A stretch of 64,000 nt of DNA from Escherichia phage VEc20: the sequence record MN022785.1; one strand, 5' to 3'. A program made the translations under genes and the position numbers. Below are positions 8,685-21,737 of the stretch, piece by piece (the stretch's first letter is position 1; each line of letters opens with the position of its first letter). The notes under the pieces are model-generated. The model made no database searches. It had not been told where the DNA came from and saw nothing but the letters and a program-made list of their open reading frames with translations.

Positions 8685-10498
8685 TGATGCTTAACCCTAT
8701 GCATGATTTCTTTATTTTTGCCGAGATTAAATCCGCGTTCGTTCGGATTTCCCAAATAACCACACGTTCTTCTTATTGTATTCATCTTTTTAGGATCAGT
8801 TTCTCCACAAATAGAACAAACAAATCCGTTTTCAGTAGGAGTCATTTCATGGGTACTTCCGCATGTAAAACATTTATCCACTGGCATATTAACACCAAAA
8901 TAATCTAAATGTTGTGCAGCATAATCCCATACGGCCTCAAGACCTTTCAAGTTATTTTTCATATCAGGAAGTTCAACATAAGAAATGTGACCACCTGTCG
9001 CAATGAAATGATATGGCGCTTCACGAGAAATCTTTTCAAACGGAGTAATATTTTCTTCTACTGAGACATGGAAACTGTTAGTGTACCAGCCTTTATCGGT
9101 AACATCTTTTACGCTTCCATATTTTTCTGTATCGAGTTTACAGAAGCGATAACAAAGGTTTTCAGCAGGAGTCGAATATAAACTAAAAGCAAATCCGGTT
9201 CTTTCAGTCCACTGTTTAAGATGAGCATTCATTTTAGTTAAAATTTCTCGTCCAATATCACGACCGACAAGAATATTCAATTCGTGAATACCAATGTATC
9301 CTAAAGACACTGAACTTCTACCGTTTTTAAATAACTCAATTATATCGTCATCAGGTTTAAGACGAACCCCAAATGCACCTTCTTGGTAAAGAATAGGAGC
9401 AACAGTAGCTTTAACTCCTTTTAAGGAACTAATTCTACACATCAAAGCTTCAAAACATAAATCCATTCGTTCATTGAACAATTCAACAAATTTCTGTTCA
9501 TTGAACTGTGTTCCAATATAAGAATCTAACGCGATGCGAGGAAGATTCAGTGTTACAACACCAAGATTATTACGTCCATCAAGAATTTCATTACCAGTCG
9601 AATCTTTCCATACGCCCAAGAAACTACGGCAACCCATTGGAGAAACAGGAATAGATGAGCCGGTGATAGCTTTATTGTTCTTAGCTGAAATAATATCAGG
9701 ATACATCCTTTTGCTTGCACACTCTAAAGCAAGCTGCTTAATATCATAGTTCGGATCGTCTTTATAAAGATTAACGCCTTCTTCAACGAACATAACAAGC
9801 TTAGGGAAAATAGGAGTTATCCCATCACGACCGAGACCTTTAATACGATTTTTCAGAATTGCTTTCTGAATCATTCGTTCAGTCCAGTCAGTTCCCGTAC
9901 CAAATGTAATTGTTACAAAAGGAGTCTGTCCGTTTGAACTAAAGAGAGTATTTACTTCATATTCATAAGCTTGGAATGCATCGTATACATCTTTTTCTGT
10001 TTTAGATTGAGCATAATTCAACGCATCAGCGATTTGCCATTTTTCTGCATCCTCAATATGTTTTGCATAGGTGCGTTTAACATAAGGAGAAAGTACTTTA
10101 TCGACATTAGCAAATGTAGTTCCGCCATATTGGTGAGAAGCAACCTGTGCAGTAATTTGTGCCATAATTGCAGTAGCAACACCGATTGATTTAGGAGTTT
10201 CAATCTGTGCATTACCAAGCTTAAATCCGTTTTCAAGCATTCCTTTTAAATCTACTAAACAACAATTAGTAAATGGAAGAGCAGGGGAATAATCAATATC
10301 ATGGAAATGAATAATTCCGCTTTCATGCGCTTTCATAATAAAAGACGGGACCATATTTTTGGCAATGTGTTTAGACACAATACCAGCCATAAGGTCCCGT
10401 TGAGTTGGAAAAACACGAGAATCTTTATTAGCATTCTCGTTTAAAAGGTCTTTATTAGTTTTATGAATCAATCCTTCAATTTCTTTTTCAATTGTCAT
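8681..10498 (-). CDS. nrdD: Anaerobic ribonucleoside-triphosphate reductase (class III, glycyl radical); uninterrupted
   Basis: 605 aa; C-terminal glycyl-radical motif RRTCGYLG and Cys-rich zinc ribbon; single continuous ORF. Confidence 0.95.
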   Translation of the reverse strand: MTIEKEIEGLIHKTNKDLLNENANKDSRVFPTQRDLMAGIVSKHIAKNMVPSFIMKAHESGIIHFHDIDYSPALPFTNCCLVDLKGMLENGFKLGNAQIETPKSIGVATAIMAQITAQVASHQYGGTTFANVDKVLSPYVKRTYAKHIEDAEKWQIADALNYAQSKTEKDVYDAFQAYEYEVNTLFSSNGQTPFVTITFGTGTDWTERMIQKAILKNRIKGLGRDGITPIFPKLVMFVEEGVNLYKDDPNYDIKQLALECASKRMYPDIISAKNNKAITGSSIPVSPMGCRSFLGVWKDSTGNEILDGRNNLGVVTLNLPRIALDSYIGTQFNEQKFVELFNERMDLCFEALMCRISSLKGVKATVAPILYQEGAFGVRLKPDDDIIELFKNGRSSVSLGYIGIHELNILVGRDIGREILTKMNAHLKQWTERTGFAFSLYSTPAENLCYRFCKLDTEKYGSVKDVTDKGWYTNSFHVSVEENITPFEKISREAPYHFIATGGHISYVELPDMKNNLKGLEAVWDYAAQHLDYFGVNMPVDKCFTCGSTHEMTPTENGFVCSICGETDPKKMNTIRRTCGYLGNPNERGFNLGKNKEIMHRVKHQ

Positions 10499-12220: not shown

Positions 12221-12480
12221 TTAAAGTATTCCCGCAATTGATCAAATCCACCAATATGACTTCCATCAGGAGCAAATACCTGAGGCATTGTCAAGCCTAT
12301 TTGAGTATCACGACCTAGTTTAGTCAGAAGCTCAGCGATTTTCTCATCATCAAAAACACCTTTTTCCGGCATAATATTGATAAATTCAAACGGCTGTTTC
12401 TTCACAGTCAAAAGACGTTTTGCATTATCACAATACACACATTTATGGATGTTGCTATCATAACCATATACTTTAAACAT
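12217..12480 (-). CDS. nrdC: Thioredoxin/glutaredoxin NrdC
   Basis: 87 aa, CVYC active site, matches T4 thioredoxin length. Confidence 0.9.
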   Translation of the reverse strand: MFKVYGYDSNIHKCVYCDNAKRLLTVKKQPFEFINIMPEKGVFDDEKIAELLTKLGRDTQIGLTMPQVFAPDGSHIGGFDQLREYFK

Positions 12481-12481
12481 A

Positions 12482-12724
12482 TTATTCCTTAATTCCTAGT
12501 ACTTGTTTAAAAGTCTCGTCGTAATCAAGACTTTGGCCCGTTTGTTCTTTATGTTTGTATATAATATCACTTACTTCTGATAGCATATTTTTATATGAAC
12601 GAGTTAAAGCAGATTTAAGCACGCTGTATCTATCAGGAAATTTACCGTGTTCATTATAATAAGCTATTGCTAATTCACGGACTGCCTTTTCAGCAGCCTC
12701 CATATATTCTTTACGCTTGGTCAT
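12482..12724 (-). CDS. Hypothetical protein
   Basis: 80-aa ORF. Confidence 0.5.
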
Positions 12725-12726
12725 TT

Positions 12727-13116
12727 TTAATCCAAAATATTATTAGGCATTGGTTGAACACTCACAAGTTCTTTAAAGAACTCAGTAGAGTCAGGCAATT
12801 TAACCATTTCCGGAGCATGCTTACTGAATTTATGTTTACATTGACGGCATTTATATTCAAGCTCTGGTTTACGCCAGTTAATCAACTGAACTTGTTCAGT
12901 ACCGCATTCAGGGCAATTAGGAACGTTTTTAGAAGCTCTTTCACGTCGTTCAACCATAGCCATAATAGCATCCCATGCTGGAGGTTTAAAATCTAAATCG
13001 TCGCAGCCGTGAATCTTTCCACGCATTTCCATATCATCTTCCTCACCAGCCATAATAATTTTAATTAGACTAGAATTACTTGAAGCTGCAATGTCTTCTA
13101 ATAAACGCTTTTTCAT
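12727..13116 (-). CDS. Hypothetical protein with zinc-ribbon-like Cys pairs
   Basis: 129 aa; CPECG...CRQC. Confidence 0.55.
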
Positions 13117-14042
13117 TTCAATACCTCAATAGCATTACGTAAACCATTTGCTTTTGCATTAAGAGCTTTTAACAATTTGGTGTGTTCTGCAATTTGGGCT
13201 TCAACTTCAATCAAACGGGCATTGAGATATTCACGTTCTTCACTCAGATTATCAACCTTTTCTACTTTAGGCTCTTTTACAACTGTCTTATATGTATTAG
13301 GGTTCTTCAGTTTAATTAGAATGCGTGAACTGTATAACATTGAACCATTATCTTCGGTTTCGTCATACATTTCCACTACGTCCATAATTTTTAACATCAT
13401 GCGGAGTTTATAAGACAACGAACGAATAGTTTTGTTGTGCTTATTAATTTCTTTAGCTGTCATGGTGCCAAGATTACGTGAGTAATAATAAGGAACCTGG
13501 ATATTAATTAATACTGATGAACCACCTGGCTTGTGTGTTACTTCATCAGCAATAACCCAATCCTTAACATGAACTGTATTTGTACGGTCATCGCCCGCGG
13601 TAAATAGTTTACGAGCATGCTTAAAAAGCATATTCACTTGGTCATTGAATTGACAAGCGAATTTATCAGCAAATTTAGTTTCGGGAATGGTAGATAACCA
13701 ATCAGCCAAATGGGTCTTTTTAACATCGTTAACAATAGTAAATTCAACCAAATCGGTTATAGATGTCGCAGTTTTAATGAATCTCGGCTTCATAAAGTTT
13801 TTAATGTTATCGCGAGCTACAGTAGAAGATAACATACGAGAACGTTTAAACCATTCAAGTAAATTGCCTAACGAATGAGAATAAGCGTTCTGAGTATCTT
13901 TACAGATATGATTTTCCTGGCCAACATACTGAAGGAAATCACGAAGAATATTATTGATTACTGCTCTGTGTCCTATCTGATAATCACGATGTTTAGTAAT
14001 AAGACTGTCAAAATAATCAATATAATGTTTACGAGTTTTCAT
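13113..14042 (-). CDS. Hypothetical protein, member of a four-gene tandem group with coiled-coil C-termini
   Basis: 309 aa; C-terminal heptad-like region ([42 protein letters not shown]). Confidence 0.6.
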   Translation of the reverse strand: MKTRKHYIDYFDSLITKHRDYQIGHRAVINNILRDFLQYVGQENHICKDTQNAYSHSLGNLLEWFKRSRMLSSTVARDNIKNFMKPRFIKTATSITDLVEFTIVNDVKKTHLADWLSTIPETKFADKFACQFNDQVNMLFKHARKLFTAGDDRTNTVHVKDWVIADEVTHKPGGSSVLINIQVPYYYSRNLGTMTAKEINKHNKTIRSLSYKLRMMLKIMDVVEMYDETEDNGSMLYSSRILIKLKNPNTYKTVVKEPKVEKVDNLSEEREYLNARLIEVEAQIAEHTKLLKALNAKANGLRNAIEVLK

Positions 14043-14096
14043 GTTCTTCTCACTTGGTTAATGGTTTATACTCCGAGCCATCCTTGGCTTTAAATT

Positions 14097-15098
14097 TTAC
14101 TTAATTAACTGTAAAGCTTGTTCAAGACGATCCAGGCGATTAACAGATTCTTCCCAAATCCTTTTAGCCTGCTCATATTCTTTCTGTGCTTTATTAGAAA
14201 TTTCTAGAACTTCTTTATAAGCTTTTTCTAATGCAATAACTTCTGGACGAATTTCTACCGGTTCAGGTGAATCATCAAGATTATCCATTAGTTCCTCAAG
14301 GGTAGTTTCTTCTTTAGGAGTATTCACAATTTCATCACATTTTTGTTGGTAAATTTCTTTATCAGTCGGTGAGTACGCACACTTTACTTCACGAAGACTA
14401 ACTACAATTTTATATCCTTCCCAACCGCATATATTCTTAAAAGGATAAGTATGAATATTTTCTACCGTTTCCATACAAAGTAATGCAGTCTCTAACTGAC
14501 GAGTTGTATCACTAGCAATTGAGAAAAATTTATTAATGTTCTTTTGATTAGCTTCTGGTGTAAAAAATTCATAATTCACAAAAATAGCTGCTTTATTTTT
14601 ATCAAGTTCATATTCTTTTATGATAATCATATCAGAAGCCAAAGGATGAATTTGACGATAATCGCCATAACATAATTTAGAAGCTGATTTTAGAATTTGC
14701 TTCTTGAAAAGTCTAAAATTACTAATCCAACGACGAGTAAAAATATTCTCAGGGTCTTCTTTATTATTAAGATGATAAGAATTAACATCACCGAACCAAC
14801 TGTATCCTACTACATCTTTGGTTCGTTTAATTTCTTTCCCAAAATTACTAAGAATATCTTGATTAACTAAATATGAAAGAAGACGAGACCCTTTAAAGGT
14901 TTCCTTAATATCATCTTTATCTACACGACTAGAAATTTTATGAACTTCATGAATAAATTTGCTGGAAGAAACAATACTTGCATCAGTATTGTTGAGCCAC
15001 TGATTGATAATAGAAAGAACACTATTCTGACTAGACATAGGTTTAACTTTATCATCAATAACGCTATTGAATGATTTGATATATTCGTTACGAGTCAT
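14097..15098 (-). CDS. Hypothetical protein, tandem group member with coiled-coil C-terminus
   Basis: ORF 14097..15149; start set at MTRNEY (GAGGAG 7 nt upstream; early-promoter-like TTTACT..TATAAT further upstream). Confidence 0.6.
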   Translation of the reverse strand: MTRNEYIKSFNSVIDDKVKPMSSQNSVLSIINQWLNNTDASIVSSSKFIHEVHKISSRVDKDDIKETFKGSRLLSYLVNQDILSNFGKEIKRTKDVVGYSWFGDVNSYHLNNKEDPENIFTRRWISNFRLFKKQILKSASKLCYGDYRQIHPLASDMIIIKEYELDKNKAAIFVNYEFFTPEANQKNINKFFSIASDTTRQLETALLCMETVENIHTYPFKNICGWEGYKIVVSLREVKCAYSPTDKEIYQQKCDEIVNTPKEETTLEELMDNLDDSPEPVEIRPEVIALEKAYKEVLEISNKAQKEYEQAKRIWEESVNRLDRLEQALQLIK

Positions 15099-15120
15099 AT
15101 TAATCTCCTCAGTAGAAAGT

Positions 15121-15152
15121 AAGAACATTATACCACATCCTTGTGGCAAAGT
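15121..15152 (-). promoter_or_regulatory. Early promoter-like element
   Basis: Minus strand reads TTTACT, 17 nt, TATAAT ahead of the 15098 start. Confidence 0.45.
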
Positions 15153-15155
15153 AAA

Positions 15156-16175
15156 CTAGTTCAGTGCATTTAGTGCATTGTTCAATTTAGAACGTTGCTT
15201 CGTGAGATTTTTGACTTTTTCTTGAGCTTTTTCTAGCATCTTTTCAGCTTCTAGCACTTCATTAGTTGCTTTAACGAGTTCATCATCTACTGCCTTGATA
15301 GACTTCTCAATCGCATCCGCGTGCCATTTTTCAACAGGTTTAAGACTCGGATTTTCAATAGGAAGAAAATTCACTTTATTGAATTTCCATGCATCTTTAT
15401 TACCTGAGCTATACATCCAAAATTTAGGATCGTTTGATGAGCAATTAGATAAATTTAAGTTATCTTGCACTTCCTGCTTTTTCTCTTGCGGGACTTCATC
15501 CTTTCTCAAAAAATCGTATTTAAATGAAACGATCATATCAAGTTCATACGTTGTTGTATGTTCCCAATTTCGCTCAAAATGAGGTAAAATCTTAGACTGA
15601 ACAGCGGCAACAACATCCATATACTTAAATGCTTCTGTCAACTGTGATTTAAGGCATTCACAAATTGAAAGAGAATTTTTTGTATTAGGTTTAAAGCTAA
15701 TTCGTGCAGTTCTATTATTTTCTTTTAATGGTCTTACTTCCATCTGAAGAGTATAACCATCAAATTTCAGGTTCTTTAAGTTAATGTCAGAACCTTTTAA
15801 TCGACTAGCCGTCGACAAAATTTGCTTTAATTGTTTACGGAATAGAGCAATAAATCTCCATTCAAGACGGTAATGATTTGGATTAAAAAATCCTGTTGAT
15901 AAATCAACCTTACTCTGACCAACGCCTTGAACAAATAGAGGATTTTTATAATCAATAGTTTTACAGAAATCGGTGAGCTGTTCGCGAGCAGTCATTTGCG
16001 TAATATATCCAGCTTTATCAAAATGTCGCAGCCATTCACTGCTATTCATATACTTAAAGTGAATGGAACTATTAACTCTATCAGGGTCTAAATTATTTTG
16101 GCACAAAAATGTCATAACATCACGAGTATAACTGGCATTACGAACCATATCTTCAATTTGAGAACGAGTTTTCAT
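15156..16175 (-). CDS. Hypothetical protein, tandem group member with coiled-coil C-terminus
   Basis: 339 aa; shares an N-terminal MKTR start and an internal F..F.KQ.L.S.AS.L motif with 14097..15098. Confidence 0.6.
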   Translation of the reverse strand: MKTRSQIEDMVRNASYTRDVMTFLCQNNLDPDRVNSSIHFKYMNSSEWLRHFDKAGYITQMTAREQLTDFCKTIDYKNPLFVQGVGQSKVDLSTGFFNPNHYRLEWRFIALFRKQLKQILSTASRLKGSDINLKNLKFDGYTLQMEVRPLKENNRTARISFKPNTKNSLSICECLKSQLTEAFKYMDVVAAVQSKILPHFERNWEHTTTYELDMIVSFKYDFLRKDEVPQEKKQEVQDNLNLSNCSSNDPKFWMYSSGNKDAWKFNKVNFLPIENPSLKPVEKWHADAIEKSIKAVDDELVKATNEVLEAEKMLEKAQEKVKNLTKQRSKLNNALNALN

Positions 16176-16183
16176 GGTGTTCC

Positions 16184-17089
16184 TTAAGATTTAAGTAAAT
16201 CAACAATTTTAATTAACTTTTCACGCTCAGATTTAGCTTTACTACTCAATCCAGATAGTCTGAAAATTTCATCATCATATTGTTGAATAGAAATATTCAG
16301 CTCTTCAATCTGTTTATTAAAATAATCAATTTGTTCAGAATGTTTTTCGTTACTACGAACTGGTACAGGTTTTGTAGGCAATTTAGTTGAACTGGATTCA
16401 TCCGGGCGATAAATTAAAATACAATTTGAACCAATCGGGCATTTAGCACCAGACACATATTCTAGTGTTCCAGCTTCTTTTAAAACTTCAAAAGCTAAAC
16501 GGAGATGATGACCCATATTGACATAATCTGTAGAGTGAGCTCTGATATAATAATCATCTCCACGAGTACTAAATTTAAAGCATTTAAGGTCTTCTGTATT
16601 ATTAGTTTTAAAAATCATTTGTTTATCTAGACCTTTAGCTAATCGAGCACCTAATGCTAATAATCGTCGTTGATTTTCCCATAAATCCGCAATCATTTGA
16701 TCGAATGACAATTTCGGCATTAGTCGACCATAAAGGTCATATCCTTTATTATAATTGCGAAGAATTTCACTCGCGTTAATACGAGACAACGCTCCAATTT
16801 TATTAAGGGCTTTCATGATGCGATTAGATAAACTCATTCCAGACCCGTTTGTTCGCTGTAAATGTTTTTCTAATCCAAATCCAATATCAACTTTAAATTT
16901 ATCTAAAATTTTGGCATGAACATCTCTGTCAATAACATTCAAATCCAAAGTTGGGTTAAATCTATGAAAAAATTTATCTGGCTCTCCACGACGAAGTACA
17001 GTCCATTCATTCATCATTTTTTTATTAACTAAAGATTTAATTACTGCATTGACATTATTAATTACTACTGACATATTTTCCTCACTCAA
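16184..17089 (-). CDS. Hypothetical protein, tandem group member with coiled-coil C-terminus
   Basis: 301 aa; C-terminal EQIDYFNKQIEELNISIQQYDDEIFRL... Confidence 0.6.
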   Translation of the reverse strand: MSEENMSVVINNVNAVIKSLVNKKMMNEWTVLRRGEPDKFFHRFNPTLDLNVIDRDVHAKILDKFKVDIGFGLEKHLQRTNGSGMSLSNRIMKALNKIGALSRINASEILRNYNKGYDLYGRLMPKLSFDQMIADLWENQRRLLALGARLAKGLDKQMIFKTNNTEDLKCFKFSTRGDDYYIRAHSTDYVNMGHHLRLAFEVLKEAGTLEYVSGAKCPIGSNCILIYRPDESSSTKLPTKPVPVRSNEKHSEQIDYFNKQIEELNISIQQYDDEIFRLSGLSSKAKSEREKLIKIVDLLKS

Positions 17090-17490
17090 TTTTCAATTTT
17101 ACTAAATACGCAGAATATAATGGAAAAGACTATATAAGCACCACACACAGATTGAACTAATACCATTCCAAAGAACCAAACAATATTATCAAACCATGTC
17201 TGTTTTACGTCGAAAGGACGTAAACTTACAGTAATATTATCACCTTTTTCTATTGAAGAATACATCTCCGGTGAAATATATTCGCTAAATCTATAACCGT
17301 CTTTGAGTTCATATACAGCAATAAACGATAAACTAGACCCCTTTCCTTGAGTTCCTGTAAGGGTATTAACTACAGTAACATCATAATCTTTATAATGCAT
17401 ATAATCATTAATAGCATAATAACCATATGCAACTACTACACATAAACAGCATATCAATAAATTCAATCTTTTAATTATCAACTGTTTCAT
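17086..17490 (-). CDS. Membrane protein (N- and C-terminal hydrophobic segments)
   Basis: 134 aa; ATGA overlap with the downstream gene. Confidence 0.55.
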   Translation of the reverse strand: MKQLIIKRLNLLICCLCVVVAYGYYAINDYMHYKDYDVTVVNTLTGTQGKGSSLSFIAVYELKDGYRFSEYISPEMYSSIEKGDNITVSLRPFDVKQTWFDNIVWFFGMVLVQSVCGAYIVFSIIFCVFSKIEN

Positions 17491-17545
17491 AATAATCTCA
17501 ATTAAAAGGGCTTAGAACCATTATACCATCCTTGGTATAAAGCGG

Positions 17546-18073
17546 TTATGCGAGTACCGTCTTTAACCGTTCTTCAAACTTCCGAAGAGTATTCTGGCGT
17601 TCAGCTCTTTGCTTTTTGTAAGTTTCAATACGCTCTGAAATGAGAGTGTATCGTTCATTTACTGATTCTTTCATAAAATCAGGAATTTCACGAGAAGCTT
17701 TAATCTCATCAAATTTATCAATAACAGCTTGCTCTTCAGCAATTAAGTTATCATACATCAAAATATCTTTCTTGATGAACTCAATATCTTCTTGAGTTAC
17801 ACGAGATAACTTAGATGCTTTATCCTTTTTGTAATGTTCATTAGTATCACGAGACCAGTGTAATGTACGATTTTTATTCGTATTCTTGTAAATTTCTACA
17901 ATACCAATCTCATCGATAATAACGATCCAATTCCAACGGGATTTGTAAATTTGTCCTCCATCAACCGTGATTTCACCTCCGATTGAGATGTCATTAAAGA
18001 ACTTGCTTTGCGCTTCAGATTTAAATTTACCATCGTTGTAATTTACCAGGTTGAAAATATCTTTAGCGTTCAT
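17546..18073 (-). CDS. Hypothetical protein, charged C-terminal helix
   Basis: ORF 17546..18133; start moved to MNAKDIF because an early-promoter-like element (18101-18131) sits inside the longer ORF. Confidence 0.5.
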   Translation of the reverse strand: MNAKDIFNLVNYNDGKFKSEAQSKFFNDISIGGEITVDGGQIYKSRWNWIVIIDEIGIVEIYKNTNKNRTLHWSRDTNEHYKKDKASKLSRVTQEDIEFIKKDILMYDNLIAEEQAVIDKFDEIKASREIPDFMKESVNERYTLISERIETYKKQRAERQNTLRKFEERLKTVLA

Positions 18074-18100
18074 TTTGTGTTCCTCCGTAGTTGATAGTTG

Positions 18101-18131
18101 TATAGTACCACAGAGGAACAGTCTTGTAAAC
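18101..18131 (-). promoter_or_regulatory. PeSL-type early promoter-like element
   Basis: Minus strand GTTTACA, 17 nt, TACTATA; conserved gatagttgtatagtacca block. Confidence 0.5.
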
Positions 18132-18133
18132 AA

Positions 18134-18448
18134 CTAAAAGAAACTTCTTTCACAATTTTTTCCACTAAACCATGCGCTAACCGCTTTCTTAGTCTCAGGA
18201 GCAGTGTTATCCATAAACCATTCAAAGGCAGCCTTTTTATGATTCTGGAGGGCTTCTCGGGCTTTAATCTGCTCACGGTCTATTAACACTAACATATGAG
18301 CCTTTCTTGTCACCAGGGGCTTCTTATGATTTTTTGAATACTCCCAATCATTTGTCCATCGCATCGTTGTTGCGAATTGAAGTACAGCTTCTTTAATCTT
18401 AGTTTCGTAAATTTCACGAGCCTTTGAGTATAACATCATTACCTCCAT
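18134..18448 (-). CDS. Hypothetical protein
   Basis: 104-aa ORF. Confidence 0.5.
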   Translation of the reverse strand: MEVMMLYSKAREIYETKIKEAVLQFATTMRWTNDWEYSKNHKKPLVTRKAHMLVLIDREQIKAREALQNHKKAAFEWFMDNTAPETKKAVSAWFSGKNCERSFF

Positions 18449-18538
18449 TTACCAGTTTAATTCTAGTCATCTTTTTAATGGCAGTCCATATAATCTATTT
18501 CTGAACTGCCTTTTTGTCTTAGAAGTCCTCTTATGAAT

Positions 18539-19507
18539 TTATTTCAGAAGAGTAACCTCAGCGATTTCTTCCCAACCGTTTTTGTCGGTCATAATAAAGT
18601 CAGCAAGATAAAGAGCAGTACGCAGTGAAACATTACGTAAACGGTTAACATTGACTTTCATCCATGATAATGCTTTATAAGTTTCTTCATCAGAAAGACC
18701 GCGCTTTTGCATCATGTCGGTTGAAAGAATAACATCTTCAACCCTGACCATAATTTCTTCATTAGTGTGAACACCCAAATCTAAATAAACTGAGCGGGAC
18801 ACTAATGCTTGTAAATGTGGAGCAAGTTTAGTACCACGGTCTAATTCGCGGTCAATGTCAACGTTTGTGATAAAAACAATCGTTCCTTTAAATTCAAACT
18901 CACGCTCAATGCCTTTTTCTTCTAAGTAAGAAGATGCGGTGCTCCAGCAGACTTTGCGGGTCTCTCCGGTGTCCAGAGCAGCTTTCAGAAGATTAAGAAT
19001 GTCCATATCAGAGAAAACATCCACATCATCAATCAAAAGGACAGAATTCTCTTCACGATTATTCCAAAGCTGTTCATAAAGACCGATACCGGAGATTTTA
19101 CCGTTAATGCTTTTATATTCAATGTATCCATTATCATTTGCTTTATTCAAAGCTTTATCTAAAGAATACGTTTTACCAATACCCGCCGCACCAGAGATAA
19201 TTAATGAACGAATGTTTCCGTTAATAATACCATTCGTCATCATTCCCATAACATTAAATCTTTTATTAATGCGGGTTTTCATATCTTCATATGATTCTTT
19301 AACTTCTTCAACTTTTACACCATCATATGAAATGTCTGATTTGTAAACCCAAACACCGCGACGCTTACCGTCAATTTCAACAAAAACTTTACCATCTCCT
19401 TGTGCATCCACCGGAGCATTATCTGGGAACCATTCACCTAAGAGCTCAAAAGTTCCAGAGATTTCTTTACCAAAGTAGATACCCTTATTGATAGTTACAG
19501 TTTTCAT
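18539..19507 (-). CDS. P-loop NTPase (AAA-like) of unknown function
   Basis: Walker A GAAGIGKT and Walker B LLIDDVD; start set at MKTVT with GGAG 8 nt upstream. Confidence 0.65.
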   Translation of the reverse strand: MKTVTINKGIYFGKEISGTFELLGEWFPDNAPVDAQGDGKVFVEIDGKRRGVWVYKSDISYDGVKVEEVKESYEDMKTRINKRFNVMGMMTNGIINGNIRSLIISGAAGIGKTYSLDKALNKANDNGYIEYKSINGKISGIGLYEQLWNNREENSVLLIDDVDVFSDMDILNLLKAALDTGETRKVCWSTASSYLEEKGIEREFEFKGTIVFITNVDIDRELDRGTKLAPHLQALVSRSVYLDLGVHTNEEIMVRVEDVILSTDMMQKRGLSDEETYKALSWMKVNVNRLRNVSLRTALYLADFIMTDKNGWEEIAEVTLLK

Positions 19508-19542
19508 TTTATTCTCCAATTTTACATTTGTTTTGATAGGGT

Positions 19543-19573
19543 AATAGTATCACACTACTACCCTGCTGTAAAC
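19543..19573 (-). promoter_or_regulatory. PeSL-type early promoter-like element
   Basis: GTTTACA, 17 nt, TACTAT on the minus strand with an inverted repeat around the -10. Confidence 0.5.
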
Positions 19574-19576
19574 AAT

Positions 19577-19840
19577 TTATTTTAATGTTTGCCAAATTTT
19601 TACTGCTTCGCGACGAGATACTTCTACAGCTCCAAGTTCTACAGCTTTTTGGCGTCGCCGAGCGTGTAAGTCATAATGTTTAATGCGTTTATCTTGAAAC
19701 CAAGAACGTTTCATTCCTATTGCTTCTGCCATTTCGTGAAGCTCTTCAATATCTCCATCAGTGAACATATGACAATTTTTAGTTGGATGACCGCGAAGTT
19801 TCCATCCATGATTCATTAAAACATCTACGTAAACTGTCAT
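19577..19840 (-). CDS. Hypothetical protein
   Basis: 87-aa ORF (MTVYVDVLMNHGWKLRGH...CHMF...HYDL). Confidence 0.5.
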   Translation of the reverse strand: MTVYVDVLMNHGWKLRGHPTKNCHMFTDGDIEELHEMAEAIGMKRSWFQDKRIKHYDLHARRRQKAVELGAVEVSRREAVKIWQTLK

Positions 19841-19988
19841 TGATTCTTCTCCAAATAAGTTTCGATAATTTTCTGGGCGAGATAAACCGCGTTATCTTCA
19901 GTTGCGTCTTCTAAGAAACTTTCAAAACACTCTGAAATTTCTTCTGTATCAATCAACTTTTTTACTTCAATTGGTGTAATTTTCATTT
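19839..19988 (-). CDS. Small acidic hypothetical protein
   Basis: Hand-translated 49-aa ORF with ATGA overlap to the downstream gene; below ORF-track cutoff. Confidence 0.3.
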
Positions 19989-20021
19989 TGTTTTCCGTTT
20001 AAGTGTTTGTTTTGATAGTTG

Positions 20022-20052
20022 TATAGTACCATAAAGCTTTATGCTTGTAAAC
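20022..20052 (-). promoter_or_regulatory. PeSL-type early promoter-like element
   Basis: GTTTACA, 17 nt, TACTATA; preceded on the minus strand by the hairpin at 20081-20104 and an A/T-rich block. Confidence 0.5.
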
Positions 20053-20080
20053 AACTTTGTGAAAAATTTTTGAAATAAAA

Positions 20081-20104
20081 AAGGGGACCTCTAGGGCCCC
20101 TTTT
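20081..20104 (-). terminator. GC hairpin (stem-loop part of a PeSL-like element)
   Basis: ggggacctctagggcccc followed by a T-run on the minus strand. Confidence 0.45.
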
Positions 20105-20110
20105 ATGCTT

Positions 20111-20611
20111 TTATTCCATTTCTATTATATGCATGCTCTTTTTGCTATCAAAATATATGTTTTTAACTGTTAACTCCGAATTAATTGGCAATAAAAACTC
20201 TCTTTCATAATCCACCATAGAAAGATTATCATAAAGCTTATTAAGCTTATCATCATCAATCTGGCCAGATTCTTCAATTGCGATTAAATTTTCTAAAATT
20301 TCAATCATAGCAGTTGAATAGTCAAAAACGTTTGCATTTTTTAACACTATTAAAACATTAGTCATATAGCGTTCTGCCGCAAATGTTTCAGCTATATGAG
20401 ATTCACTACTAAAGGAAGTTATTCTTTTAAATTTGATTCTCCTATTAACTTCAAACTTATAAGATAGTACTTCCTCTATTGTAAGTCCTCTAAAAAGCAC
20501 GTCTTTAATCTCAAGTTTGTCTTTAATGTAATCATTAACACGCTTATGATTAAAATCATTAATTTTGTTGCCAAGGCATTTCATTAAAATATGCATTGTG
20601 TTTCTCTTCAA
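20111..20611 (-). CDS. Hypothetical protein, cassette flanked by near-identical promoter/stem-loop repeats
   Basis: 166-aa ORF. Confidence 0.55.
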   Translation of the reverse strand: MKRNTMHILMKCLGNKINDFNHKRVNDYIKDKLEIKDVLFRGLTIEEVLSYKFEVNRRIKFKRITSFSSESHIAETFAAERYMTNVLIVLKNANVFDYSTAMIEILENLIAIEESGQIDDDKLNKLYDNLSMVDYEREFLLPINSELTVKNIYFDSKKSMHIIEME

Positions 20612-20643
20612 TTTTTAAAGAACAATTAATTAACTACAAATAT

Positions 20644-20673
20644 ATTATAATATGCTTTATGATAGAAGTAAAC
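20644..20673 (-). promoter_or_regulatory. Early promoter-like element with canonical -10
   Basis: Minus strand TTTACT, 17 nt, TATAAT. Confidence 0.55.
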
Positions 20674-20703
20674 CACTTTGTGAAAAATTTTTGAAATAAA
20701 AAA

Positions 20704-20721
20704 GGGAGCCCGAAGGCTCCC
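20704..20721 (-). terminator. UUCG-tetraloop hairpin
   Basis: gggagcccgaaggctccc. Confidence 0.5.
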
Positions 20722-20723
20722 TA

Positions 20724-21737
20724 TCATTTATAATAACTTCGGTGGTTTTCAAGATAGACCTTCTCAAGGAAGTCATCCCAGAAACCCATGTCCACTTTTT
20801 GCTGCATACCGTTCTTAGAAGCTTCAGTAGATGCTGCTTCTACTTGATCGACCACATCTTCCAAAAACTCTTGAACGGTTTTAAATGGATGTTTACCCAA
20901 CTTCACGTCGAGAATAAATGGAGCGTCTTGAAGTGGATAAATCAAGTCGCCAGTTTTGTAAATTTCCAATAGTTGGAGTCCACCACGGCAAGCATGACTC
21001 AAAGCTTTCCAGTTAATACCTTCATTGGCTTCGGCCTTACGAGCACGTTCACCATATTCAGCATCTAATTTGTTCAGTGACTGCTTAAGCTCAATAAGAG
21101 AAAGAGTTGTCTGATATTTACGACCCAACACAGTGTAGAACGTTTGTGGACCTGTTTTCTCATGATTATGGAACACCCATTCACAGAATTCATTTTCTGG
21201 AAGACGATGCTTAATATCTTCAACTTTAGTGCGGCGCTGCTTAATAGAACCATCTTCTTGGTAATCAACCCATTGCTCGGGGATTTGATTAACTACTTTC
21301 AATACATCACGTAATGCAGCCAAACGAGAACCCTTAACGCCGTATTTAGAAGCTTGCTTACGGACATATCCTAAATATGATTTCATGTTAGTCGTATAAA
21401 AACGAGAACGATTGTCTTGAATAAACTTCCATACATCAGGCAAATCTGATTTAACCACTAGCTCAGGTGGAGTGTGAAGCATATCCAACGCTACAGTTTC
21501 ACCATCTGCTGCTAATTTAAAGAAATATTTAAGACTGTATAGTTCATGGTCAATATCATCTTTAGTGTTTTTAGATGATGTGTTGTTAGTGTTTTTACTC
21601 ATATGCTCTTTGACATTTCCGATAAGAATATCGCGAGCAGGAGGAACAAAGATTTCTTTAAAATCGACATCAGATTCTGGTGTAGAAGTTCCATAAAGAT
21701 GACTACCAAAATAACTTTTCATTACTGTTTTCATCAT
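20724..21737 (-). CDS. Nucleotidyltransferase-like protein (Pol-beta superfamily motif)
   Basis: 337 aa; N-terminal GSHLYGTSTPESDVDF (Gly-Ser followed by a DxD pair) and a downstream acidic residue (ALDMLH). Confidence 0.6.
   Translation of the reverse strand: MMKTVMKSYFGSHLYGTSTPESDVDFKEIFVPPARDILIGNVKEHMSKNTNNTSSKNTKDDIDHELYSLKYFFKLAADGETVALDMLHTPPELVVKSDLPDVWKFIQDNRSRFYTTNMKSYLGYVRKQASKYGVKGSRLAALRDVLKVVNQIPEQWVDYQEDGSIKQRRTKVEDIKHRLPENEFCEWVFHNHEKTGPQTFYTVLGRKYQTTLSLIELKQSLNKLDAEYGERARKAEANEGINWKALSHACRGGLQLLEIYKTGDLIYPLQDAPFILDVKLGKHPFKTVQEFLEDVVDQVEAASTEASKNGMQQKVDMGFWDDFLEKVYLENHRSYYK

Follow-up and report, generated by a model that had tools for sequence, protein, structure and literature searches.

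The stretch of DNA analysed here, a 64,000-nucleotide window of Escherichia phage VEc20 (sequence record MN022785.1), carries at 13113-17089 four adjacent open reading frames (ORFs) on the minus strand, which match the annotated genes nrdC.3, nrdC.4, nrdC.5 and nrdC.6 and whose products are abbreviated below as C3, C4, C5 and C6. The region around them (12400-18200) shares 98-99% nucleotide identity with phages D5505 and fFiEco06, belongs to Tequatrovirus (T4-like), and is spanned over at least 80% of its length by 484 phage records. On the evidence of alignments and profile comparisons, the four genes are diverged tandem paralogs, forming one family confined to T4-like (Tevenvirinae) phages. 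They are the following (E, expectation value):

13113-14042, minus strand: nrdC.3, 309 residues, first paralog; PHROG 1435 (E 2.5e-116)
14097-15098, minus strand: nrdC.4, 333 residues from the ATG at 15098, second paralog; PHROG 1435 (E 1.1e-166)
15156-16175, minus strand: nrdC.5, 339 residues, third paralog; Pfam DUF7235, PF23882 (E 1.2e-124)
16184-17074, minus strand: nrdC.6, 296 residues, fourth and most divergent paralog; PHROG 2257 (E 5.2e-150)

The initial annotation had described four consecutive same-strand ORFs here, of which the first three keep their lengths, while the fourth is shortened from 301 residues. Its start is most likely the ATG at 17074 (MSVVINN...), and the orthologues all use an ATG (MSVVINN or MSQAIN); the longer form would begin at the alternative upstream TTG at 17089. 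In the T4 reference AF158101.6 (L022 4498-5325), nrdC.6 is annotated with 275 residues and a frameshifted, non-helical C-terminus; the 296-residue form with a coiled-coil tail is found in other T4-like phages and in a recent T4 re-annotation. For nrdC.4, GAGGAG and a T4-type early promoter lie upstream of the ATG at 15098.

The gene order nrdC.4-nrdC.5-nrdC.6 matches that of T4, with C4 92% identical to T4 NrdC.4 and C5 91% identical to T4 NrdC.5 across 340 residues, the full length. C5 also covers positions 1-307 of the 307 of DUF7235 (PF23882) with 416 bits, against a gathering score of 30 bits below which C3, C4 and C6 fall. Judged by these comparisons, the nrdC.5 of the window is the orthologue of the T4 factor NrdC.5, which counteracts the defence protein Dsr1. 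The window C3 represents a 'Mosigvirus-like' allele (61% identity to T4 NrdC.3, 75% to Mosigvirus), whose close homologues carry PF26897 (Phage_T4_Y04OP) in precomputed annotation, and PF26899 is present on all 109 C6 homologues. Matches of Pfam and NCBIfam to PHL, DUF3905, integrase SAM-like, XerD and PgrA were far under the cut-offs and were treated as noise. Residues 30-88 of C3 (13779-13955) weakly resemble the SAM-like domain at the N-terminus of tyrosine recombinases, likewise far below cut-offs (E 0.078 in Pfam, 0.001 in NCBIfam).

With regard to the shared N-terminal features noticed in the initial annotation, C3 and C5 do start with MKTR and C4 with MTR, and the F..F.KQ.L.S.AS.L motif occurs in C4 (FRLFKKQILKSASKL) and C5 (FRKQLKQILSTASRL), with degenerate counterparts in C3 (NMLFKHARKLF) and C6 (NQRRLLALGARLAKG). 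Common to all four proteins are, in addition, the C-terminal ending L..A(L/I)..LK and a signature helix, [IL]L..A.[RK]L..G.D, placed by the family alignment and the hhalign alignment:

15780-15827, minus strand: signature helix of C5, KQILSTASRLKGSDIN
13584-13634, minus strand: its counterpart in C3
14655-14702, minus strand: its counterpart in C4
16619-16669, minus strand: its counterpart in C6

BLASTP aligns C3 with C4 over 226 residues at 26% identity (E 4.7e-7), and the two are grouped in one PHROG (1435) and one Pfam family (PF26897). When family alignments built on Tequatro-, Mosig-, Dhaka- and Gaprivervirus orthologues were compared by hhalign, C3 and C4 matched with 97.8% probability (E 9e-13), and a combined C3+C4 profile matched the C5 profile with 87% (E 3.9e-6), in a colinear alignment of 238 columns reaching the last residue. 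A metagenomic protein of 315 residues (P0211) is intermediate, being recognised by the separate hidden Markov models (HMMs) of C5 (3.5e-15), C4 (6e-7) and C3 (3e-5). The heads are homologous and colinear from the N-terminus onward, with identity between paralogs of at most 26%. The family is very small: when 1.84 billion representative proteins were searched with a profile of C5+C4+C3, just 22 came up, all from T4-like phages. Word-indexed protein searches yielded little beyond near-identical sequences; the C4 family and distant C5 homologues escaped them. In the PDB, a sequence search found no relatives. The similarity of the four proteins, suspected earlier from their tails and N-terminal features, exceeds compositional bias in the BLASTP and hhalign comparisons, through the intermediate P0211 and, for C6, against shuffle controls; by these comparisons NrdC.3, NrdC.4, NrdC.5 and NrdC.6 are true paralogs.

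The link of C6 is weaker than the others, and the alternative is that nrdC.6 stands outside the family, its resemblance in size, helical N-domain and coiled-coil tail being convergent, with possibly only the tail module shared. Direct family-to-family hhalign comparisons of C6 with C3, C4 or C5 were not significant (E 0.03-0.2), Pfam and PHROGs hold C6 as a separate family, and C6 does not have the M(K)TR start. However, a family profile extended by eight distant representatives matched the C6 profile with 89.8% probability and an E of 1.8e-6 over 73 columns, pairing C5 residues 44-126 with C6 residues 82-154, and the controls were clean: the reversed C6 alignment gave an E of 0.55, and 29 column shuffles a minimum of 0.06. 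The link was seen only after these distant representatives had been added. Two independent linkers point the same way. One, P0217, from a metagenomic contig where it adjoins nrdC.1 and nrdC, is colinear with positions 12-286 of the C6 HMM and is recognised by those of C5, C4 and C3 as well; the other, gp94 of the Tegunavirus fHe-Yen9-01, is recognised by the family HMM and by that of C6. Run against the 89 window ORFs, the family HMM ranked C6 first among non-members; matches at 1-994 and 1480-2499 were discounted as probable gp46 and gp47, by position and length alone and without a library search. With the predicted structural resemblance of C5 and C6 described next, convergence appears improbable, and we assign C6 to the family on this combination of profiles and predicted structures.

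The C5 model generated by AlphaFold2 (AF2) is of low confidence, with a mean predicted local distance difference test (pLDDT) score of 61.6. It runs from N-terminal helices through a helix (104-127), a hairpin (143-161), another helix (168-184) and another hairpin (189-218) to a disordered part (224-281) and a final helix (283-338). In the C6 model (mean pLDDT 76.8), helices up to residue 145 precede a hairpin (168-178), a helix (187-200), a hairpin (205-222), a disordered part (228-242) and C-terminal helices (246-295). Taken element by element, the predicted order is therefore identical, and both would be built of a helical N-domain, an alpha-beta-beta-alpha-beta-beta sandwich, a disordered linker and a C-terminal helix. 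Their structural neighbours in BFVD are shared as well: Foldseek retrieved gp111 of fHe-Yen9-01 with the C5 model (1.8e-5) and the C6 model (1.1e-3), a protein of Serratia phage PS2 with both, and, with each, uncharacterised T4-like phage proteins of about 300 residues from Enterobacter, Pectobacterium, Acinetobacter, Erwinia, Klebsiella and Citrobacter hosts. An NrdC.5 entry was not recovered in BFVD with the C5 model. Alignments and models together suggest a common architecture of the four proteins.

The Foldseek results also bear on the possibility that the heads are decoys with a tail terminator- or completion-like core, which mimic virion proteins and saturate host sensors of structural proteins. 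Tail completion and terminator proteins were indeed listed in BFVD, at E of 5e-3 to 3e-2. Moreover, Dsr1 is reported to recognise a component of the virion, the phage major capsid protein, via a tetratricopeptide repeat (TPR) sensor common to Avs7 (2026 preprint, PMC12803255), and a phage protein that competes with the tail-tube trigger is reported to block DSR2. However, these matches have TM-scores below 0.45 and come from the low-confidence C5 model, and the fold is a generic one, the alpha/beta core fitting RNA polymerase alpha and designed proteins just as well. Furthermore, the reported trigger of Dsr1 is the capsid protein and not a tail terminator. We regard decoy heads as very improbable.

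The C-terminal helices of the four proteins are delimited as follows:

13116-13253, minus strand: C3 tail helix, residues 264-309; from the heptad score, aligning with the C4 and C5 tails
14100-14249, minus strand: C4 tail helix, residues 284-333; from the heptad score, ending in RLEQALQLIK
15159-15329, minus strand: C5 tail helix, residues 283-339; ending in KLNNALNALN, predicted by AF2 as helix 283-338 (pLDDT 63-89)
16187-16351, minus strand: C6 tail helices, residues 242-296; ending in KLIKIVDLLKS, predicted by AF2 as helices 246-272 and 278-295

With a crude heptad score, the top or near-top 28-residue window sits at the C-terminus in C4, C5 and C6, and one window in the C3 tail exceeds the 95th percentile of shuffles. 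The observed maxima are 8.0-9.5 vs 6.2-6.5 +/- 0.8 for shuffled sequences, and that of C5 was beaten by 0 of 200 shuffles. In a sequence search of the PDB, the weak matches were coiled coils. The heptad-like tail that had been ascribed to each ORF is thus retained for all four, by the shuffle test and, for C5 and C6, the AF2 models; its length of about 40 residues is not, since the helices delimited above span 46-57 residues, somewhat more than that figure. The C-terminal heptad helix would most likely cause the protein to dimerise or to form a higher oligomer. The idea of a variable head on a conserved tail holds inside each orthologous group, where conservation is highest in the tail (C6 between genera has 61-70% identity in the tail vs 24-41% in the head). 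Across paralogs it has to be modified: the heads are homologous, and the tails conserve their architecture and the terminal L..A(L/I)..LK signature but not their sequence.

The neighbouring nrdC.8 (17546-18073, 175 residues) likewise ends in a heptad-like charged helix, and a 175-residue protein of Klebsiella phage KPV15 is a weak Foldseek match of the C5 model. NrdC.8 was dropped as a family member, as hhalign found no profile similarity to the NrdC.3-6 family.

In tblastn searches, the families were confined to Tequatro-, Mosig-, Dhaka- and Gaprivervirus, and an IMG/VR scan with the C5 alignment gave no more than 10 loci, none of them outside these genera. There are four copies in Tequatrovirus, C3-like, C5-like and C6-like ones in Mosigvirus, and C4, C5-like and C6 in Dhaka- and Gaprivervirus. 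Distant members adjoin nrdC in Klebsiella T4-like phages. Two remote relatives are encoded by Yersinia phage fHe-Yen9-01 (Tegunavirus; L018), gp111 at 16382-17323 and gp94 at 9459-10337; the former lies between nrdC.10 and nrdC.11, unlike the array described here, and the latter near nrdC. From these positions, the family may have a wider range and more mobility within the nrdC-tk region than is apparent from sequence searches.

The array diverges much faster than its surroundings. Between genera, the flanking genes gp49, nrdC, nrdC.8, nrdC.10 and nrdC.11 keep 67-92% identity, whereas C4 has 46-51%, C5 22-27% and C6 31-52%. Furthermore, C3 exists within Tequatrovirus as two alleles, 60% identical, which are exchanged as a cassette: at about 13200-14000, nucleotide identity drops to 57-67% inside flanks at 94-100%. 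Both the 22-52% identity across the array and the allele cassettes fit the diversifying duplication proposed earlier. The adjacent zinc-ribbon gene nrdC.2 (12727-13116) behaves as a swap cassette too, with 62-74% identity inside flanks at 94-98% in one Tequatrovirus contig, L010, and codes for 129 residues here vs 104 in T4.

Natural rearrangements occur as well. Salmonella phage Manna (L005 4215-5252) carries a C6 head (about 87% identical to the window C6) fused to a C4 tail (94%), nrdC.5 and most of nrdC.4 being deleted. In Yersinia phage fPS-65 (P0056), NrdC.5 residues 145-271 are fused to NrdC.3 residues 129-309, and of nrdC.6, phage Pinarejo (L006 5001-5141) retains just the last 47 codons. 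The junctions in Manna (QQ..DEI) and fPS-65 (KVN/QVN) look like microhomology and were not counted towards paralogy. Two further sequences are probably assembly or contamination artefacts, namely, P0092 (173 residues on an 803-bp contig), with an unrelated N-terminus on an exact C5 tail, and P0054, a C5 fragment labelled Enterococcus faecalis.

As to function, Srikant, Guegler & Laub (eLife 2022, PMC9391042) found that dsr1, a gene for a SIR2 defence protein, prevents a T4 clone with deletions from growing on strain ECOR17, and that expression of T4 nrdC.5 restores growth on MG1655 carrying dsr1. According to the HIDEN-SEQ transposon data, none of T4 nrdC.3, nrdC.4, nrdC.5 and nrdC.6 is essential on K-12. 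Both the anti-Dsr1 activity and the dispensability of all four genes were thus demonstrated by others in T4. NrdC.5 was published as a single uncharacterised gene, with activity shown for the T4 protein only; the window gene shares its position and Pfam family, and C3, C4 and C6 are its remote paralogs. Our literature search found no mention of a kinship of nrdC.5 with nrdC.3, nrdC.4 or nrdC.6, nor of a mechanism or structure of NrdC.5.

Since NrdC.5 is known to disarm Dsr1, C3, C4 and C6 are good candidates for further immune-evasion genes. We propose, with a probability of about 0.6, that nrdC.3-nrdC.6 constitute an array of counter-defence inhibitors on one scaffold, a function demonstrated for one copy and which we infer for the other three. 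The inhibitor family suggested in the initial annotation is in this way supported by experiment for NrdC.5, through the T4 gene, and proposed for its paralogs. In its favour also count the early-type promoter in front of nrdC.4 and what looks like the signature of an arms race: rapid divergence between genera, exchanged allele cassettes, natural deletions and hybrids, and tails better conserved than heads. Each protein would consist of an N-terminal helical domain, a two-layer alpha/beta sandwich, a flexible and often acidic linker, and the heptad helix of 46-57 residues. The fast-evolving head may bind a host immune protein directly, the coiled-coil tail may provide oligomerisation and avidity, and each paralog or allele could be tuned to another target or target variant.

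The surroundings of the array are of the same kind. gp49.2, which counters OLD (PMC13096335), and nrdC.1, whose product counters Septu (bioRxiv 2025.11.20.689424), lie 0.4-2 kb away. These genes and the dmd-tifA-adfA cluster ('anti-TA island') of T-even phages are likewise early, dispensable, fast-evolving, adjacent small genes; they are mutually unrelated, whereas nrdC.3-nrdC.6 are paralogs on one scaffold. A functional analogy is offered by DSAD1, a phage inhibitor of the SIR2 defence DSR2, which is reported to block a SIR2-type NADase sensor by binding it. DSAD1 belongs to another phage lineage and has another target, and the searches made here revealed no sequence relation.

The main rival accepts the four paralogs but restricts counter-defence to NrdC.5, the others serving unrelated early host takeover, for instance by binding host transcription or nucleoid proteins. 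The extreme divergence of the paralogs would permit such a change of function, and the very weak integrase SAM-like match at the N-terminus of C3 would suit it. In addition, nrdC.3, nrdC.4 and nrdC.6 go unnamed in the main text of the HIDEN-SEQ preprint, which describes a recent screen of T4 for anti-defence genes and adds new ones, nrdC.1 among them. Nevertheless, none of the four genes is needed on K-12, and natural genomes show them deleted, fused or swapped, which is typical of host-range accessory genes and not of general takeover factors, and the array sits in a cluster of proven counter-defence genes. We therefore consider takeover functions rather unlikely, although ahead of the other alternatives.

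Besides the content of that screen, several points weigh against an array of inhibitors. The experimental link to a defence system exists for nrdC.5 alone, and the effect of NrdC.5 on Dsr1 could be indirect. With regard to the scaffold, C6 is joined to it by the 73-column profile match, the two linkers and the shared element order; the AF2 models cover C5 and C6 only, that of C5 with low confidence, and were compared by element order. The oligomeric state of the tails, finally, is deduced from a predicted helix.

A bolder version of the inhibitor array, which we rate as a long shot, is an 'inhibitor chassis'. Here, a coiled-coil stalk would present two or more fast-evolving alpha/beta heads that plug the ligand-sensing domains of bacterial pattern-recognition defences, the TPR sensors of the Dsr1/Avs7 class; mimicry of virion proteins may be the means. 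Each paralog or allele would be directed at another sensor, and heads and tails would be exchangeable, as in the Manna hybrid. If true, T-even phages would possess an inherent set of inhibitors, reshuffled by recombination, against immunity that senses proteins.

All four genes are long-standing T4 annotations, and PF26897 and PHROG 1435 already unite C3 with C4, while PF26899 already covers C6. As queried here, Pfam and PHROGs file C3/C4, C5 and C6 under three separate accessions, which are here joined as one superfamily: C5, the group of the anti-Dsr1 protein, and C6 are added to C3/C4. The evolutionary pattern is added as well; shown in this analysis are paralogy, a restricted taxonomic range, rapid divergence and rearrangement of modules. 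Our literature search found no paper describing the superfamily link of C5 and C6. In the best studied phage, nrdC.3, nrdC.4 and nrdC.6 have lacked an assigned function for decades, and homology to NrdC.5 makes them testable counter-defence candidates. The allele cassettes and the head/tail hybrids suggest that specificity lies in the head and a common function in the tail, a picture that would help to read the host range of therapeutic T4-like phages and to find target defences that are still unknown.

With regard to annotation, the GenBank label 'thioredoxin' was rejected for the four ORFs, as C3-C6 match no thioredoxin or glutaredoxin family in Pfam or NCBIfam; the label was inherited from the gene name nrdC.x. 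This product name has spread over nrdC.1-nrdC.11 (12482-21737) in hundreds of GenBank records, and the only glutaredoxin/thioredoxin among these genes is nrdC itself.

The putative promoter preceding nrdC.4, identified by consensus match only, is located as follows:

15127-15155, minus strand: T4-type early promoter, GTTTAC, 17 nucleotides, TGGTATAAT

A small hairpin at 15131-15148 overlaps its -10 region.

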